64,000 nt of DNA from an uncultured Poribacteria bacterium. GTDB lineage: Bacteria; Poribacteria; WGA-4E; WGA-3G. Positions 42,862-50,830 of the stretch are shown piece after piece (the first letter of the stretch is position 1; every line of letters begins with the position of its first letter). Under the pieces are notes generated by a model. The model worked only from the letters and a program-made list of their open reading frames with translations, had not been told where the DNA came from and made no database searches. Position numbers and translations under genes: made by a program. The stretch covers positions 672,001 to 736,000 of the forward strand of contig OX638351.1 in assembly GCA_951813565.1 (NCBI GenBank), in the 5' to 3' direction.

Positions 42862-43479
42862 CTAATCCACTATAAGAGGTTTTTCAAATATGAATAGGTT
42901 ATTGCATCCGAACCCCCAACGTTCCCACTTTATTAGATTCCACTGATTGAAAATATCTGGAAGGCATTCTGGATTAAAACCGTAATGCTCATGTATTGAG
43001 AATCCTTCAACAATCTTAAGTGTTTTTAGTAGATCAAGTAACTTCTCAACGCGTGGGTGTTGCACTGTGATTATAACCTGTCCACCCGGTTTCAAGTATT
43101 TCCAGCAAGCATCTGCAACCGATGGGAGGGCATTCATCGGGATATGCTCAACGGTTGCCAACATCGTAATGACATCATAGGTTTCATCTTTAACGAAGTC
43201 GTATGGAAAATACCCAGGTACAAGCTGACACGTCCCAAATTTTACGGTTTGTGTGAGATGTGAGTCAATACCTATAGCTGCTTGCAGATGTCCATTGAGG
43301 TAACGTAAAAAGTTACCGTCTCCAGTCCCAACGTCCAAGAGACGTGCGCCTATCGGAATGTACGGTTCGACTTTAGTAAATCGCAGATATTCAAGGAAGG
43401 AATCCAGGGGTTTTCTTGGATACTGATCGCCTTGTTGATACTTCCTGTTTTTGAGAAATCGGGTAATAGAGTTTGCCAT
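42862..43479 (-). CDS. Class I SAM-dependent methyltransferase
   Basis: LLDVGTGDG, YDVITM..VEH, LKPGG; abuts the stop of the upstream gene. Confidence 0.88.
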   Translation of the reverse strand: MANSITRFLKNRKYQQGDQYPRKPLDSFLEYLRFTKVEPYIPIGARLLDVGTGDGNFLRYLNGHLQAAIGIDSHLTQTVKFGTCQLVPGYFPYDFVKDETYDVITMLATVEHIPMNALPSVADACWKYLKPGGQVIITVQHPRVEKLLDLLKTLKIVEGFSIHEHYGFNPECLPDIFNQWNLIKWERWGFGCNNLFIFEKPLIVD

Positions 43480-45338
43480 CTATTCTTTGGCTTGTTCGCT
43501 TGGCTCTATAGCAAGATATTTGTCATCGGTTTCTATATCAGAAGGATAATGAATTTCCCAAATTTTGAGAGGGACGGTATCTTCACCATTTGTAGGATAT
43601 ATTGGGACAAAGATGTCGGAGAAGTCCCCGAGGAAGTAAAGACGAACAGCAAGACTTTGCCAACCGAGATTAGAAATATGGTAGGCTTTTTCAAGATCAT
43701 CCTTTTCATCGTAATAAAGGATAACATTTCCGTGTGGATTGTCGTCAATTGAGGTTTTGTGGATATGGCGTTTGTTGCCCTTGAATGCTACATACGGGAG
43801 GCGTGCTATTCCACCTTCTTTCAGACGTGCCGTTATGAAATCAGGCGGTGATGCTATATCAGGTTCTTCAATGTACAGAAAAGGCGTTTTTTCTATTTTT
43901 GAGAGACGTTTGTATCCAAGTTGAACAAGGCGGGTGAGTCCGAATCTTCTATCAATGTTTTCGTCGCTGCCGATATAAGAATAGGTAGAGGCACGGTCAA
44001 TCAGTCCCCACTCTCTTAACATGAGATGTGTTGCACCGTGCGTTTTGAGAAATTCAAGTGCCTCTCGTACGTCTTGTGCGCAATAGACGTGGCGGTAATA
44101 GAGGTGTATCCAGTGTGGGAGAAACGTGTCCTGATCGGTGATGGTTTTGACACCGCCAAAAACGTTAAGTCGACTGCCATAACTCCAGTTCGCTGCCATG
44201 ACAGTATCTTGTGAAAGTTCGGTATCTATCCAATTGAGTGCTTGCGCGATATCTCCTGTTCCAGGGAGCGGTTTGCGCCAGTAAGCGGCAGCAGGAACTG
44301 TCCTATTTGCATGCCCACCGAGGGGAGTCCAAAAAAGAACGGGTATCAAAACGGCAATTGCAATTGTAGCGGGTATCCACTGCGGTTTTTTGAATTGTTG
44401 TGTGAGTGTCGCTGGCAACTGCCATAAGAGCCATGCAGTGCCGTAGGCAAGCGGGACACCTATGAAGAAATCATAACGTTTTGCACCACGTGAGAGTGCC
44501 ACCCACAACACAAACCACACAAGCATTATAACTGTTACCAATTCGTTTTTAGTTGTTTCTTTTCGCAAACATGCAATTGCGAGAGTGATGGCCATGAGTC
44601 CCAGTGAAATGAGAAAGAGTGTTTCGCAGCTGCCCTCCCCAATTGCCTCACTTAGAGGCCATCGGAAAAACGTCGTTGCGGTGAAGAGCGTGAGGGCTGT
44701 GGCAAGCGGGATTCCGTTCTGTTTCCAGATATACAAACTCCCAAGTATCAAGCCGAGACTACCCAACATAAATACGGTGCCGTACCGGGCTGGCCAATAT
44801 CCAAAGTTCGGATCAACGAGTTCTGTCATGTCTTTCATGAGTCGGTTTTCTTTAAATATGAACGCGGTATTCTCAAATGTCCCGGATTGCAGCAGAATAT
44901 AACCGATTCCGATTGCAATGCCGAACAGAGTGAGTCCTCCTGCAAGTTTCCGGGCATGCGGACGTAGCGGTGGGTAATATTTCAAAAGCAGGTATCTCAA
45001 TCCACGCATGATGAAAACTGCAATCGGTGGGACAAGCGTAAGTGCTGCCAGATGCGTTGCATAAGTATATCCGCTCCGATAAGCAGGACTGATAAGGTAA
45101 AGTCCCGGAACGAACATGAGTATCCACATTAGATACTCTTTTAGGTGAGATTCTGTCTCTGTAGTGCAGAATTTCCAGAGTTCTGCACAGAGGATAATTA
45201 AAACAAAAAGCCCGAAACTTTCCCATGAGAGTCCACCTAAAAAAACGACAAACCCAGCAAGCGCGGTGGCGAAATATCTGTACCAATTACGAATCCCTTT
45301 ACCTTCTTTTTCAGCAACCCCCGTTCCCCCCTTGACAA

Positions 45339-47017
45339 CTTACTATTACCCATAAGTCGAAATTCTTACTATTGATCATAAATTCGACATAAAGTGCAGA
45401 CATCTATTTTCTTGATTTACATTCACCTGTGCTGTCAAGATAAGTGTATTTTCGCTTGGGTCATTGGGTCATAATATACTTGCATATCAAGGACATTTGT
45501 GTTATGTTCAATAGATATTATTACCAACACAAGTAACACTTATGGATCTGATACATTGGAGTGAATAATGATGTCTACAAACAAGAAAGAGTTATCTACA
45601 TCTTGGAGTATTGAAGAGTTTACGGGTCTTGATTTGGGAGATGCCCGTCTAAATAAAAGGTTGCTCAGCGTTGCAGATGCGTTGGCGGCACATCCTACCG
45701 CAACCATCAACGCTGCGTGTGGCGATTGGGCATCGGTGAAGGGTGCCTATCGTTTATTTGATAATGAAAAGGTTTCTTCAGAGAAGATATTGGCACCTCA
45801 CTTTAGACAGACGATTGCGCGGATGTGTGCGTATCAGCGTGTGTTTGCTATACAAGATACAACCTATCTGGATTACACCGATCACCCGTCAACAGAAGGT
45901 TTAGGTCCGATTGGTGCCTCGTCTCATCACCATTATGGTTTTGTCAAACACACGACACTCATCGTGAGTGGGTCGGGGCTCCCGCTTGGGTGTTTGACAG
46001 ATAAAGTGTGGGTTCGGGATGCGCCGACACAAGAAAAAAAACGGAAATCCAGACCGCTGGTAGAAAAAGAGAGCTACAAGTGGATTGAAGCAGTGTCGGC
46101 AATAAAATCCGAAGCCCCAGAAGGTGTTGAGGTGATTTGCATTTGTGATCGTGAAGCTGATATTTATGAGTTTTTCGTTGAAGCACAAGAGATGCCTTTT
46201 GTAATGCGTGCTGCGCAAGATCGTGTGGTTGATAATGATGTTGGTAGATTGCGTGCTTTAGCAGAAAGTCTACCGGTTGCTGGTGAGTTTAGCATACAAG
46301 TTGCAGCGCGTGGTGCCCAACCTGCCCGAGAAGCAACTCTGAGCGTTAGTTTCACAAAAACGACGCTTCTCCCACCGCATCGTTCGCAAGCATCACGCTC
46401 CCAAGAGCTGCCTGCTGTGGAAATATATCTCGTATGGGTGATAGAGACGAACCCACCCGATGGCACAACACCTGTGGAATGGCTGCTCCTTACAAATGTG
46501 AAAGTCACAGATTTCTCAGATGCGATTGAACGGGTAGACTGGTATACGCAACGCTGGCACATTGAAGTCTATTTCAAAATCCTCAAATCAGGAACGAAAG
46601 TTGAGGAAGTCCGCTTCCAAACCCAAGAGAGACTCCTACGCTTTATTGCCCTGCTGAGCGTGATTGCTTGGCGTCTTTATTGGTTGACAATCATCAATCG
46701 GCAGGCACCGGATACGGACTGCACACATATATTGACTGAAGTTGAGTGGAAAGCACTTTACTGTATAACACATAAGACGCACATTTTACCGAAAAAACTG
46801 CCAACTGTGTCTGAAGTCGTTGTTTGGATCGCCAAACTGGGTGGCTTTTTAGGACGAAAGTCCGATGGTAAACCTGGAGTGACCGTTATTTGGCGAGGAT
46901 GGCAAAGGCTTAGTGATATTTCTGACACCTTTGCTCTTTTTCACCAATACACACAAAACAATATCGGTCAGAACCTTATTGATGGACATGTTCCATAAAC
47001 TTATGGGTAATAGTAAG
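45339..47017 (+). mobile_element. Complete IS4-family (IS50/Tn5-like) insertion sequence, 1679 bp
   Basis: Perfect 19-bp TIR CTTACTATTACCCATAAGT; 9-bp TSD CCTTGACAA at 45330-45338 and 47018-47026. Confidence 0.96.
45568..46998 (+). CDS. IS4 family transposase
   Basis: LGDARL..R, IQDTT, DREADIYE, Y..RW.IE.YFKILKSG, LGGFL.RK.DG.PG. Confidence 0.96.
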   Translation: MMSTNKKELSTSWSIEEFTGLDLGDARLNKRLLSVADALAAHPTATINAACGDWASVKGAYRLFDNEKVSSEKILAPHFRQTIARMCAYQRVFAIQDTTYLDYTDHPSTEGLGPIGASSHHHYGFVKHTTLIVSGSGLPLGCLTDKVWVRDAPTQEKKRKSRPLVEKESYKWIEAVSAIKSEAPEGVEVICICDREADIYEFFVEAQEMPFVMRAAQDRVVDNDVGRLRALAESLPVAGEFSIQVAARGAQPAREATLSVSFTKTTLLPPHRSQASRSQELPAVEIYLVWVIETNPPDGTTPVEWLLLTNVKVTDFSDAIERVDWYTQRWHIEVYFKILKSGTKVEEVRFQTQERLLRFIALLSVIAWRLYWLTIINRQAPDTDCTHILTEVEWKALYCITHKTHILPKKLPTVSEVVVWIAKLGGFLGRKSDGKPGVTVIWRGWQRLSDISDTFALFHQYTQNNIGQNLIDGHVP

Positions 47018-47704
47018 CCTTGACAAGGGGGTTTAATAGTATCTGTTCTTTCCACAGATAAACGGCAACAGCAAGTACGCCAAGCATCCAGCACCATGCA
47101 TCGCGATCGCCAAAGCCTGCGGCACTACGTTCGACACTTCCTGGTAACGTTGCCAATAGCACGCTAACAATAGACGCAAACAGCAGACCATGACTACGCA
47201 CAAGGACAAGAAATAGTACACCAAGCCCTAAGGTAAAACAGATAGCGGTAATGTAGAGTTGAATGTGGTATCGCGTGAGTGCAGGAAAGAGCCACGCCAT
47301 CGCTTTATGCGTATAAGCGATGGCATAGGAATAAAGTGGTAGCAGTTGACCGTTGTCTCTGCCGAGCGGAAGCCAACGGTGCGTATCGCGTGACGGAAGG
47401 GTGCCGTTTTCTGCAATTTTCTCCGCCATCCACTGATAGAGGAAAGCATCGTTTTCTGTAAAGTGTCCAGCAGGGAGATGCTCTACACCTTGGATACGTA
47501 TCCCAAAAGTGAGAAACATGAGGTATAAAAGTAAGGCACAGACAAGAATTTTCTGAAGATAAGGAGGTAATTGCATCCTAATTTCAATTTTCAGGGATGG
47601 GTTCTGTAAGCTAATTCAATAGCACACTTATAGCAGGGCAAGGTTTCTGACTGTAGAAGTGATCCAACGTTTTGGCAACTACATGTCTTGTGAATCCTTC
47701 ATAC

Positions 47705-47968
47705 CTATTTCGTCTCGTGTTCGGTTGTGGTTAAGACTTTCTTCAATATTGGATTGCTTTCAAACAAATCTTTATTTGCTTTTATTATACGTTCCAGCCG
47801 ATCTGCACAGCATTTGCAGTTTTTCTTCTTTGCAGTAGGTATTGTGATAGCATGTGTTTGCTTTGACGTGTGCATCGGAAGCGTATTCGTTGCGTATCCA
47901 ATAAAACAAACGAGAATACCAACGATGGCAAGGATGCCAACGCTATATACGAAAAAGTTGTCTTTCAT
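47705..47968 (-). CDS. Small membrane-anchored protein with CKCC motif
   Basis: N-terminal TM then KKKNCKCC; operon spacing; start at MKDNFF (or 47992). Confidence 0.6.
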   Translation of the reverse strand: MKDNFFVYSVGILAIVGILVCFIGYATNTLPMHTSKQTHAITIPTAKKKNCKCCADRLERIIKANKDLFESNPILKKVLTTTEHETK

Positions 47969-47988
47969 AAAAGTGACTCTCCATTTTC

Positions 47989-48717
47989 TCAAAACTTCGG
48001 TACAAATCCATGGTCACGAAGCATCTCTAAATGCCTTTTCGCGCCTGCTTCTGAAGCAAAGTTCTGTATCTGTTGTTTAAAAAGTTCAAGGACTTCATCT
48101 ATTGTTTCCTCTGAATATCCTTTTGATTGCCCATTTACCCTTAATGATTCAAAAAAATTAGGTGGCATTTCTTCAAGTACTTTACCACTTCGGATATTTT
48201 CAAAATATGCTTGCTGTTCTTCAGCAGAAAGAGAGTTTAAATGATTTGCAATTTCTTTATTTCGTATTTCTGACTGCTTCTTGACTTCATCTATCCCAGC
48301 TTTAATTTCATTTAACTTGTTATCGATAGTCTCCAAATACTTTCTTTTCTTATCCATTTCCTCGGCACTTAAGTCTTTATGATTATGACCATTAGAATCA
48401 TCCGGATGATGTGTGTGCTGATTTAATACTTCTGACACAGAGTCTGGTAATGTGTTTACTGACCCCTCACTTTCTACAAGTGTATCAGTAGTGTCATCAT
48501 CATCTTCTTCTTGAGATATTTTCTGCCCTTGAGATGTTTCTACAGACGCTGCGTCTGACGTGTTTTCCATTGTTGTTTGGGATTCGGTGTTGTAACGCAT
48601 AACCGGTTCCGCTATGAGTTTAGGACGTACAATGGCGGAATACCATATTGCCCATCCTAATATTCCTATAACACACGAGATGCCTGAAGCAAGAAAGATT
48701 TTTTTCCAAGTGAACAT
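47989..48717 (-). CDS. Membrane-anchored hypothetical protein (acidic/His-rich linker, coiled coil)
   Basis: N-terminal TM and HTHHPDDSNGHNH; GAGGTG RBS before MFTWKK. Confidence 0.7.
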   Translation of the reverse strand: MFTWKKIFLASGISCVIGILGWAIWYSAIVRPKLIAEPVMRYNTESQTTMENTSDAASVETSQGQKISQEEDDDDTTDTLVESEGSVNTLPDSVSEVLNQHTHHPDDSNGHNHKDLSAEEMDKKRKYLETIDNKLNEIKAGIDEVKKQSEIRNKEIANHLNSLSAEEQQAYFENIRSGKVLEEMPPNFFESLRVNGQSKGYSEETIDEVLELFKQQIQNFASEAGAKRHLEMLRDHGFVPKF

Positions 48718-48814
48718 ATTTATCACCTCTTTGGTTTTGAGACAAACACCGCATTTCCAGCAAAAAATCGGTATTTGTCTCATGAAGTTAACGTTTCACA
48801 GAATGAGTAAACAA

Positions 48815-49162
48815 TTAAGAGTCGCAGCCTCCAGTATCACAACCTCCGCCATTGTGTTCTGCTTCGCAAGCATCAATGGCGGCTCTAAGCTCCCTACCAC
48901 GTTCCCAAAGGTAATTTACGACATCATTAGCAGCATCAATCATCCATTGTGGGGCTCCTATATCTATCAGGTAATCCCTTGCGTCTATCGCCCATGATAA
49001 TGCTTTCATAACTAGATTTAATAACACTTCAAGCCAACCACAATGCCACGCCAACGCTGGCATAACAGTTAGAAACATCATAGCACAAATGAGAATTAAA
49101 CTCGTCACAACTAAGAATATAGAGTTGTTTCTCGGCAATGTAATTGTATTCGTCATTTTCAT
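48815..49162 (-). CDS. Small secreted helical peptide with C-terminal GGGCDTGGCDS
   Basis: Signal peptide ending ALA; 4 Cys in the mature part; AAGGA RBS before MKMTN. Confidence 0.7.
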   Translation of the reverse strand: MKMTNTITLPRNNSIFLVVTSLILICAMMFLTVMPALAWHCGWLEVLLNLVMKALSWAIDARDYLIDIGAPQWMIDAANDVVNYLWERGRELRAAIDACEAEHNGGGCDTGGCDS

Positions 49163-49320
49163 TTTCTTCCTTTCCAACTTCTGTCCAAGAAGTTAGTGTT
49201 AGTAGAAGGAGAAAATGCAATTTGTAAACGCTATCCGAATCGTGCTTCCATTTTACACTTATCGCGAACAGTGTTTTGTAAATTGTACCATTTCTCCCAC
49301 AATTTATCAAATAAAATAAA

Positions 49321-50080
49321 TCAATTATTCTCCCGCTTAACCTTTGTAGTGGCGTTTTGCGTTACGGTTTTCTTCCACCGCTTTATCACCCGTTTCACGC
49401 ACACTTCAATGTCAGTCGGGGGAGATACCTAATTTTTCGCTAATCTCTTTGAGAGGTTGATTGTCTAAATACCGTTCCATAATCTTCTGTTCTTGAGATG
49501 GAAGATTATCAAGCAGTTCGTCTAATTGGTGCGCAATCGGGCGTAACCACTTGAGTATCCGTTCCCACCTTTTCTGAACAACCTCGGGAGTGGAACCTAT
49601 TGCTTCGGCAATTTGCTTCGGCTTTAGGTCATCTAAGAAGTGTTCAACAACCTCAAGATCCTTTTCTGATAGAAGCCGCAGGAGACAAGTCAATAGATAA
49701 AGATCCATCTCAGTCTGCTGCGTCTGTTGTGCTGCAAGCATTGATGCATCTGCAGCTTCTCTTTCACCATCCATATTATCAAGAGAGACGAATTCAGACA
49801 TCTGCTTAACTTCTCGTTGTCTGTCTCTTAATCGGTCAATCGCCGCATTTTTCGCGGTGGCATATAACCATCCGACGAGTTTATCTGGATACTTGATCGT
49901 TTCTCTCTTGTTGAAGGCTTTGCAGAAGGTTTCACTCGTGATTTCATCTGCATCGTGATGATTTCCTATGATCTTGGTAACGGAAGCACGGATTGGTTCA
50001 TAATACTTCCGCATAAGCAGACTTAGTGCTTCATCGCTACCTGTTTCCACAAATTGCCGATTTAGGACGTTATCATTCAT
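49321..50080 (-). pseudogene. ECF sigma factor with duplicated region-4 HTH; frameshifted near the C-terminus
   Basis: DADEITSETF, WLY..AKN..ID..R, IAEAIG; the ORF stops at 49412, but deleting one base of the G5 run (49418-49422) gives LGISPTDIEVCVKRVIKRW to a stop at 49321. Confidence 0.7.
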
Positions 50081-50830
50081 CTCCTCCCCCAGTGACTATA
50101 ATCACTACCTTCATAAATAGTCACGTAAATTTGGGGACAATTCCGACATAAAATCGTATATTTTAGAAAATTTTGATTTATGCGTCCGTATATATAGTGA
50201 CCTTTAGAATTAACAGGACATTTTGAGTTGTAGGAGGGAACTCTGATTCCCGACTATCAATGCGTTTTGTCGCGATTCGGAGATCGCTCCCGCCAAATGC
50301 CAAAAGCGCATTTGGCGTTGATTCACAGAAAATGTGCCTCTTTAATTTCAAAGTTCACCATACAACTAATTTAATCTTAATACATGTCTATCGGTACTGA
50401 AATTTCCGTAGTCGATTTGATAACAAAGCAAATAAACTAAAATACGGTCAGAGTTGAAACTTCTTATGAAACAAGACTTATGTAAAACGTCCAGCATGGA
50501 TTCACTAAAACAGTGGTATATAATACCCTTTATAATTTAAGACACAGTATTATGCCGGAAAGGGTGCATAGCATAAAAAATATTGGGTCTCATCTAAAAA
50601 TAGATTTGCGTTAGTCCAATATAAAGATAATTTTAGTGTGTAGGGTTCATGTTGGGTTTCGTTCCTCAACCCAACCTACAATATAACCTTTTAGGAACAC
50701 GCATCAATTGGTAATTCTTAAAACTAATATCCCTGGCAAATACTACTTGTCTATTGTCAATTTTCAATCTATTGTGATACAATAATTGGAAATAGAGAAA
50801 TCTACTTCATTTGGATTATTGGAGGACTAT

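Follow-up and report, generated by a model that had tools for sequence, protein, structure and literature searches.

The window analysed here, a 64,000-nucleotide stretch of contig OX638351.1 from an uncultured Poribacteria bacterium, contains at positions 42862..50080 a cluster of six genes, including one for a secreted protein with a cysteine-containing repeat tail and one for an STT3-like membrane enzyme. The six genes share the minus strand, are flanked by a mandelate-racemase-family gene and purD, and follow the order given in a first-pass annotation of this DNA: an extracytoplasmic function (ECF) sigma factor, a signal-peptide protein, an acidic/His-rich protein with a transmembrane anchor, a transmembrane protein with a CKCC motif, the STT3-like enzyme and an S-adenosylmethionine (SAM)-dependent methyltransferase whose ATG directly abuts the STT3 stop codon. 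The features are as follows.

49412..50080, minus strand: ECF sigma factor, 222 amino acids, matching Pfam Sigma70_r2/r4_2
48815..49162, minus strand: secreted precursor, 115 amino acids, with predicted signal peptide 1–38 (...PALA38), helical core Cys41–Cys99 and repeat tail
48818..48850, minus strand: tail GGGCDTGGCDS, two Cys units of ([S/T]-G-[G/S]-C-x)n, the proposed glycosylation tag
47989..48717, minus strand: acidic/His-rich protein with N-terminal membrane anchor, 242 amino acids from an ATG with ribosome-binding site
47705..47968, minus strand: small membrane-anchored protein with C-x-C-C motif (NCKCC), 87 amino acids
43480..47576, minus strand: STT3-like gene including an insertion
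47018..47576, minus strand: 5' part of the STT3-like gene (END41, R150, DRD157–159), ending at one copy of a 9-bp target duplication
45339..47017, plus strand: IS4/Tn5-type insertion sequence, 1679 bp, with 19-bp perfect inverted repeats, 9-bp target duplication and transposase at 45568–46998
43480..45338, minus strand: 3' part of the STT3-like gene (E356, R471, NWSYGS, DQDT)
44176..44190, minus strand: NWSYG, aligned to WWDYG of yeast Stt3
42862..43479, minus strand: class I SAM-dependent methyltransferase, 205 amino acids, without signal peptide (Methyltransf_23, E 1.9e-13)

As annotated, the mature part of the precursor has 77 amino acids and is free of N-x-S/T; it ends in ACEAEHNGGGCDTGGCDS. 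The acidic/His-rich protein has no family match. The order sigma, peptide, His-rich protein, CKCC protein, STT3-like enzyme and methyltransferase was found again in relatives at other chromosomal sites, so the cluster is not a chance arrangement. The sigma gene is frameshifted near its C-terminus, about 30 codons ahead of the usual end (orthologues have 249–266 amino acids); at position 49418, the contigs of all four sequencing runs have one base fewer, to which a 79% identical sigma paralogue may contribute.

The annotated 802-residue STT3/AglB-like enzyme held up in its fold and motifs, described below, but not as a continuous gene, being inactivated in this copy by the insertion sequence, which is present in five copies in the genome at 99.7% identity or more. 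In silico removal of the element yields an 802-amino-acid frame with END at 41, DRD at 157 and NWSYG at 567. Contigs of run X1 break at both ends of the element, ruling out an assembly error as the cause of the split. An empty-site allele (joint 45329 to 47018) was detected in three of four sequencing runs, and intact orthologues, 88–95% identical, exist in other genomes; hence the copy in the window is dead while the system is not. All five insertion-sequence copies occupy C-rich/G-rich palindromic targets. In the window (45320–47035), the target is a palindromic insert of 11 codons, in frame, within a loop of the STT3-like gene and shared among relatives only with locus L046 (loci are cited by number); no other copy of this insert was found, and it was rejected as a dispersed repeat family.

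For the fold of the enzyme, we modelled the intact orthologue L046 (93% identical to the enzyme of the window), using an alignment-based AF2 model with a predicted local distance difference test (pLDDT) score of 87.6 in place of a single-sequence prediction (pLDDT 41.5). The top Foldseek match of this model was PglB (E 2.5e-15), and VIA Z-scores were 30.4 for yeast Stt3, 27.5 for AglB and 23.2 for PglB, followed by 22.7 for DPY19; these protein glycosyltransferases scored well above ArnT/Aft. According to the model, the enzyme has a GT-C fold with an STT3-type C-terminal domain. In sequence searches, the 5' piece of the gene scored 21.9 bits against a Pfam cut-off of 24.5, the intact orthologue scored 54 bits against the 450 cut-off of TIGR04154, and a search of the PDB returned only the yeast Stt3 C-terminal domain (E 0.23 with the single sequence, 0.0018 with a profile); three paralogue frames in the source genome exceed the Pfam STT3 cut-off.

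These enzymes keep their catalytic-site residues and have a changed acceptor-pocket motif. Residues D43, R150, D157, D159, E356 and R471 show no variation among the 76 enzymes compared and were mapped by motif order to D56, R147, D154, D156, E319 and R375 of PglB, so that the two DXD motifs, the Glu at the TIXE/SVSE position and the two Arg of the metal/phosphate site are all retained (roles from PMC7226087 and PMC8342417). In the alignment with yeast Stt3, AANWSYG stands opposite AAWWDYG and DQDT opposite DNNT. In STT3, AglB and PglB, WWDYG forms the pocket for the +2 Ser/Thr. Among 120 homologues examined here, the second Trp and the Gly of this motif are invariant, the Asp is kept in 31 and the first Trp in none, and the Tyr that follows WWDYG is likewise absent from all 120, which have S, T, N, I, H or M instead. 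The rejoined frame thus bears out the annotated NWSYG in place of WWDYG with END and DRD kept; as a marker, NWSYG itself failed, since loss of the first Trp is family-wide and a second tail-linked clade has HW[G/A]YG. In Campylobacter jejuni PglB, W457S and D459V each occur in inactive clones (PMC3527161), and Y468, after WWDYG, binds the donor N-acetyl group (PMC6215017). Because such single Trp or Asp changes inactivate PglB, the +2 hydroxyl pocket is unlikely to work in the usual way here. The region of the DK/MI motif (629–637) is variable, with a gapped alignment in clade II (described below).

A search for relatives of the secreted peptide found 74 homologues; after exclusion of near-duplicates and fragments, and addition of six genomic members and that of the window, 59 peptides were aligned. 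They have in common a signal peptide, a hypervariable helical core flanked on each side by a Cys, and the tail. Cys41 is invariant and Cys99 is present in at least 90% of the 59, with the ESM Atlas model of the peptide being of low confidence. The tail consists of five-residue units in tandem, ([S/T]-G-[G/S]-C-x)n, with one unit in 10 tails, two in 40, three in six, four in two and seven in one. All 59 tails contain [ST]-G-x-[CND], 58 contain C-x-[ST] and 57 contain [ST]xxC; counted by occurrence, [ST]xxC (98) and C-x-S/T (81) compare with 25 and 28 in within-tail shuffles (reached by none of 500), motif counts that are partly selected because the tail was part of the search profile. No other open reading frame of the source genome combines a hydrophobic N-terminus with such a tail. 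In metagenomes, a DNA pattern for the signal peptide had no match, and a triple-repeat pattern gave 120 matches, mostly unrelated low complexity, with an STT3-like gene in none of these 120 mostly short loci; the ESM Atlas held no usable match for the peptide or the His-rich protein.

The tail was found to be linked to the enzyme. We counted 33 tail-bearing loci, namely the window, L079 and 31 others, excluding three N-terminal fragments (L053, L224, L226), one locus without a match (L059), a cassette without peptide (L049) and a locus with a degenerate tail in which the enzyme is present (L211). In 27 of the 33, an STT3-like gene or remnant lies directly downstream on the same strand; 18 of these genes are intact, eight are broken or remnants and one is cut by a contig end. 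By contrast, of 17 loci with tail-less homologues only one (L230) adjoins an enzyme, which belongs to another clade. A search of 176 genomes with the DNA pattern G-[GS]-C-D-[ST]-G-[GS]-C gave 44 matches at 39 places, compared with two for the reversed control. Eighteen of the places lie in real open reading frames, 17 of them beside an enzyme gene or remnant (at L265 only its first 27 codons survive), and 15 of the 18 are the same peptide loci as in the linkage count; 14 further places lie in frames of 12–91 codons without enzyme, and seven have a stop inside the match and were not fetched. The same tail also occurs on unrelated secreted proteins of 130–300 amino acids beside clade-I enzymes, as SGGCD three times (L075), SGSCG/SGGCD (L076), SGGCG twice (L078), SGSCA twice (L126) and SSGSCD (L062), and one further tail-bearing protein stands beside a third enzyme lineage (L099).

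The relatives found are nearly all Ca. Poribacteria: 74 of 77 loci from an intact-orthologue search are assigned to Ca. Poribacteria and three to an uncultured bacterium. Matches were found in 19 of 24 genomes of the same genus compared with one of 16 from other families of the order. Many such paralogues are present per Ca. Poribacteria genome. WWDYG is kept by 21 of 81 long distant representatives and by a longer form present in four genomes (described below), suggesting from an unrooted comparison that the xWxYG family is a derived branch. In a quick IQ-TREE analysis of 77 enzymes, with support from the Shimodaira–Hasegawa-like approximate likelihood-ratio test, tail-linked enzymes fall into clade I (support 100, approximately 800 amino acids, AANW[S/G/N]YG, including the orthologues of the window) and clade II (support 99, approximately 670 amino acids, AAHW[G/A]YG). 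Tail linkage requires six changes on this tree compared with 18 when shuffled, a contrast inflated by near-copies. The two clades share seven residues that are rare elsewhere (E41, M354, T355, A464, S572, Q586 and T588). The first DXD, TIXE-like, post-WWDYG and DGGK-like positions account for six of these; the acceptor main chain at +1 and +3 is paired with TIXE (PMC8342417). Among 22 enzymes with six or seven of these residues, 20 have the motif in their locus (one from a second cassette in the same locus). Of the 51 enzymes that have at most two, L099 is alone in having a clear tail that belongs to it. The signature could stem from common descent or from recombination.

On these sequence data, the tail of the secreted protein is probably the substrate of the enzyme and would be glycosylated outside the cytoplasm. 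With similar, slightly more reserved, confidence we lean towards reading this bacterial branch of STT3 as a periplasmic O- or S-glycosyltransferase that has abandoned Asn and is dedicated to a portable tag of five residues, Ser-Gly-Gly-Cys-x, of which hypervariable secreted proteins of Poribacteria carry one to seven copies. The dedicated extracytoplasmic modification of a non-canonical acceptor proposed in the first-pass annotation is, given fold and linkage, still the best reading, whereas its glycocin/RiPP-like wording (RiPP, ribosomally synthesised and post-translationally modified peptide) fails, as discussed below. Neither of the two outcomes that the annotation named as refuting, a protein without GT-C fold or a peptide without conserved linkage to STT3-like genes, occurred. 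In such a system, the ECF sigma factor would drive the operon and the precursor would be exported by Sec, with its two helices stapled by Cys41–Cys99. A GT2 protein resembling AglJ and Dol-P-hexose transferases, found beside many paralogues, would synthesise hexose on polyprenyl monophosphate as the donor, possibly with methylation by the methyltransferase. The enzyme, with its usual metal site, would then read a 0/+3 register (Ser/Thr acceptor, Gly at +1, Gly or Ser at +2, Cys at +3) instead of N-x-S/T. Of 77 loci, 19 have a GT2 gene and 14 a methyltransferase gene at a distance of no more than 1.5 kb; the best GT2 matches are AglJ and Dol-P-hexose transferase, below their cut-offs, and suggest a monophosphate-lipid hexose as donor.

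Several observations weigh against this interpretation. Five of the 33 tail loci (L056, L057, L058, L215, L217) have no enzyme gene nearby, and eight genes among the 27 linked ones are broken or remnants, so that the peptide persists without the enzyme (the sixth unlinked locus, L209, ends too soon); conversely, cassette L049 has no peptide. The linkage loci are related by descent, and their contrast with the 17 tail-less loci is not a clean statistical test because the tail-less set consists of weaker matches, some from other families. The seven-residue signature was derived from the very clades that it describes, and the residue mapping to PglB used motif order and one hidden Markov model alignment rather than superposition. 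Two of the 59 tails have C-x-S but no [ST]xxC, low-complexity tails of Gly, Cys, Asp and Ser are frequent in unrelated organisms, and the cassette of the window itself contains no GT2 gene. A long-branched sub-branch of clade I (L063, L116, L117), which has lost five of the seven signature residues, pairs with Cys-free (S/T/G)GNNDD(T/S/A) repeat proteins. The Cys-rich partners of other clades show no excess of C-x-S/T (69/409) or N-x-S/T (62/298) over the Ser+Thr frequency of 0.165, and a family-wide rule of either kind was therefore rejected.

Since the repeat is tandem, its sequence does not fix the acceptor atom. That the enzyme attaches a single sugar to the Ser/Thr of the [S/T]-G-[G/S]-C tail after export is the leading, though tentative, proposal. 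The array begins at Ser in 48 of 59 tails and stops one or two residues past the last Cys in 38, and this conserved last Cys lacks a +2 Ser/Thr in 37, which speaks for Ser/Thr and against Cys as acceptor. We also count in favour of Ser/Thr the degenerate +2 pocket, the ability of PglB to O-glycosylate homoserine (PMC6215017) and the precedent of DPY19L3, which uses a monophosphate donor and recognises Cys in a 0/+3 register (PMC10154233). Cys as the acceptor, with C-x-S/T as a sequon in which Asn is swapped for Cys, an S-glycosidic bond and a possible role of the CKCC protein in holding the tail Cys in reduced form, appears unlikely, despite a body of evidence in its favour: C-x-S/T occurs in all tails except one, 62 of 64 non-last Cys have a +2 Ser/Thr, and the intervening x varies, with no Pro among 96 units. 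C-D-S survives in tails from which the second Cys has been lost (L052, L070), the DDCDS repeats of L207 retain C-D-S after losing Gly, several single-unit tails stop exactly at C-D-S, and in L208 (SGNNDSGNCDS), beside an enzyme with seven of seven signature residues, a Cys-to-Asn change creates a canonical N-D-S. On the other hand, the +2-hydroxyl pocket is the very part that has degenerated and differs between the tail-linked clades (NWS compared with HWG/A), and [ST]xxC outnumbers C-x-S/T. The number of Cys in the mature peptide is odd in 18 of 59, which we count for the Cys reading, and even in 41, which fits disulfides. In its boldest form, the Cys reading would make this the first membrane (GT-C) S-glycosyltransferase, with C-x-S/T read as a cysteine sequon.

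The main rival, which we consider somewhat unlikely, is that the tail is no substrate at all but a metal-binding or disulfide-forming low-complexity end, that the enzyme glycosylates other products of the cassette, such as the membrane-anchored acidic protein, at D-S/T or at a relaxed Asn, and that the linkage reflects co-inheritance in an operon. Similar Gly/Cys tails are indeed widespread without STT3, most enzyme clades lack such a tail, and the nearest outgroups retain WWDYG (in 21 of 81 long representatives). At least one N-x-S/T occurs in 27 of 31 His-family ectodomains, but N-x-S/T is not enriched over shuffles in the His-rich proteins (40 against 44.8), in the CKCC proteins (2 against 3.4) or in the peptides (18 against 21.3). 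D-[S/T] is enriched in His-family ectodomains (85 against a shuffled mean of 53, reached in none of 500 shuffles), an excess that may stem from local low complexity and related sequences. Against this rival, four or more unrelated families of secreted proteins carry the tail, exclusively next to these enzymes, and homologues of the helical hairpin that have a His-like neighbour and no tail (L212) also lack the enzyme. We regard it as very unlikely that the enzyme transfers a non-sugar group from a lipid-phosphate carrier or modifies a lipid or glycan, or that many of its copies have little function, as cargo decaying on mobile islands. Frameshifts or truncations do affect many copies, and an open reading frame resembling a CDP-alcohol phosphotransferase (labelled by sequence appearance) follows L047 and L092; however, the catalytic residues are invariant, the top fold matches are protein glycosyltransferases rather than ArnT/Aft, and two thirds (18 of 27) of the tail-linked genes are intact. 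Lanthionine-type rings were rejected given Sec export and the lack of a synthetase in these loci, the genome not having been searched for one.

A dedicated glycosyltransferase acting on the tail would resemble several known systems without coinciding with any of them. With STT3/AglB/PglB (Pfam PF02516, TIGR04154), the enzyme shares the whole-chain fold (Z 23–30), two DXD-type motifs, the Glu at the TIXE position and two Arg, and its nearest distant relatives retain WWDYG; it differs in having xWxYG for WWDYG, S/T/I for the GlcNAc-binding Tyr and DQDT for DGGK/DNXT, and in its many paralogues per genome beside secreted proteins, the linked partner being without N-x-S/T. The enzyme would work like a single-subunit STT3 enzyme, but since it lacks WWDYG and the following Tyr, we do not file it as a canonical N-oligosaccharyltransferase. 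The DPY19 tryptophan C-mannosyltransferases offer, by analogy, a precedent for a changed acceptor on an STT3-related fold (Z 22.7); they transfer a monosaccharide from a monophosphate lipid donor and read 0/+3 motifs arranged in tandem, the +3 residue being Cys for DPY19L3 (PMC10154233). Unlike the enzyme described here, which keeps its metal ligands and whose consensus tail has no Trp, DPY19 lacks the metal ligands and modifies Trp in eukaryotes. The glycocins (glycocin F, sublancin, thermoglycocin) are small secreted disulfide peptides in which Ser, Thr or Cys receives the sugar from an adjacently encoded enzyme (PMC12457901). In contrast to their soluble UDP-sugar enzymes and to a leader removed by a C39 peptidase transporter, the present system has mature proteins of 75–150 residues, a portable tail, no double-Gly leader and a hydrophobic Sec-type signal ending in A-x-A, with no C39-type transporter among the six genes or their flanks. 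The only glycosyltransferase in the window is the membrane GT-C enzyme, and the GT2 proteins at paralogous loci resemble polyprenol-phosphate sugar synthases. The O-glucosylation consensus of Notch EGF repeats, C-x-S-x-(P/A)-C, is used by a soluble nucleotide-sugar transferase of unrelated fold on folded EGF repeats; its Cys/Ser spacing matches C-x-[S/T]-G-x-C, present in 49 of the 59 tails.

In the literature searched (Poribacteria, STT3/oligosaccharyltransferase and S-glycosylation), which mostly did not include subscription papers, we found no published description of such an enzyme or pairing; within it, nothing combined Poribacteria with STT3, and Poribacteria with oligosaccharyltransferase returned only unrelated content. 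To our knowledge, STT3/AglB/PglB have been treated as a one-reaction family acting on Asn in N-x-S/T, and a Ser or Cys acceptor would thus be new chemistry for it. A branch that kept the metal site and rewired the acceptor pocket would test what sets acceptor chemistry, as DPY19 did for Trp, and glycoengineering would gain a usable tool in a portable tag of five residues and the single-subunit membrane enzyme that reads it. The many paralogues with differing partners in these sponge symbionts would amount to a natural panel of specificities. The system would also indicate that Poribacteria possess a class of hypervariable, modified secreted proteins not described before. A role in host contact, or as an interbacterial effector with its immunity protein, would be compatible with a hypervariable, disulfide-stapled helical hairpin next to a cognate membrane-anchored protein.

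The module of peptide and His-rich protein (window 47705–49162, compared with L048, L050 and L051) is 94–100% identical across genomes that share no more than 88% identity in their STT3-like genes, and in other genomes the same slot holds different peptides, which suggests that the module is exchanged between genomes. At L066 / L210, four diverged tandem His-family copies lie between the peptide and CKCC genes. The 79% identical ECF sigma paralogue (source genome C1:3163589–3165855) heads a different secreted-protein cassette that has no STT3-like gene. Upstream of the sigma gene in the window, a repeated element (50228–50330) has very high depth in four runs; a promoter scan was uninformative, with 15 sites compared with 17.8 expected. 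Six RNA runs contain part of the stretch (a share of up to 0.46), in which the multi-copy insertion sequence is included.

Another enzyme clade (L081–L086, L096, L105, L109, L113, L133) has very Cys-rich secreted partners together with WD40-like and ABC-permease-like open reading frames, labelled by sequence appearance. A longer WWDYGS form of approximately 960 amino acids is present in four of the genomes fetched; these proteins (L281–L284) lie among islands of TTWGxLK-ending and small Cys-containing secreted proteins and are absent from the source genome. The source genome contains STT3-like loci or fragments at five other places (six counted as pieces), all without WWDYG. At C1:363596–370837, a truncated STT3-like paralogue adjoins three near-identical membrane-anchored proteins and a Cys-rich secreted protein, and at C1:846962–847354, a 618-codon frame that scores above the Pfam STT3 cut-off and is not matched by the family profile is probably another GT-C enzyme.

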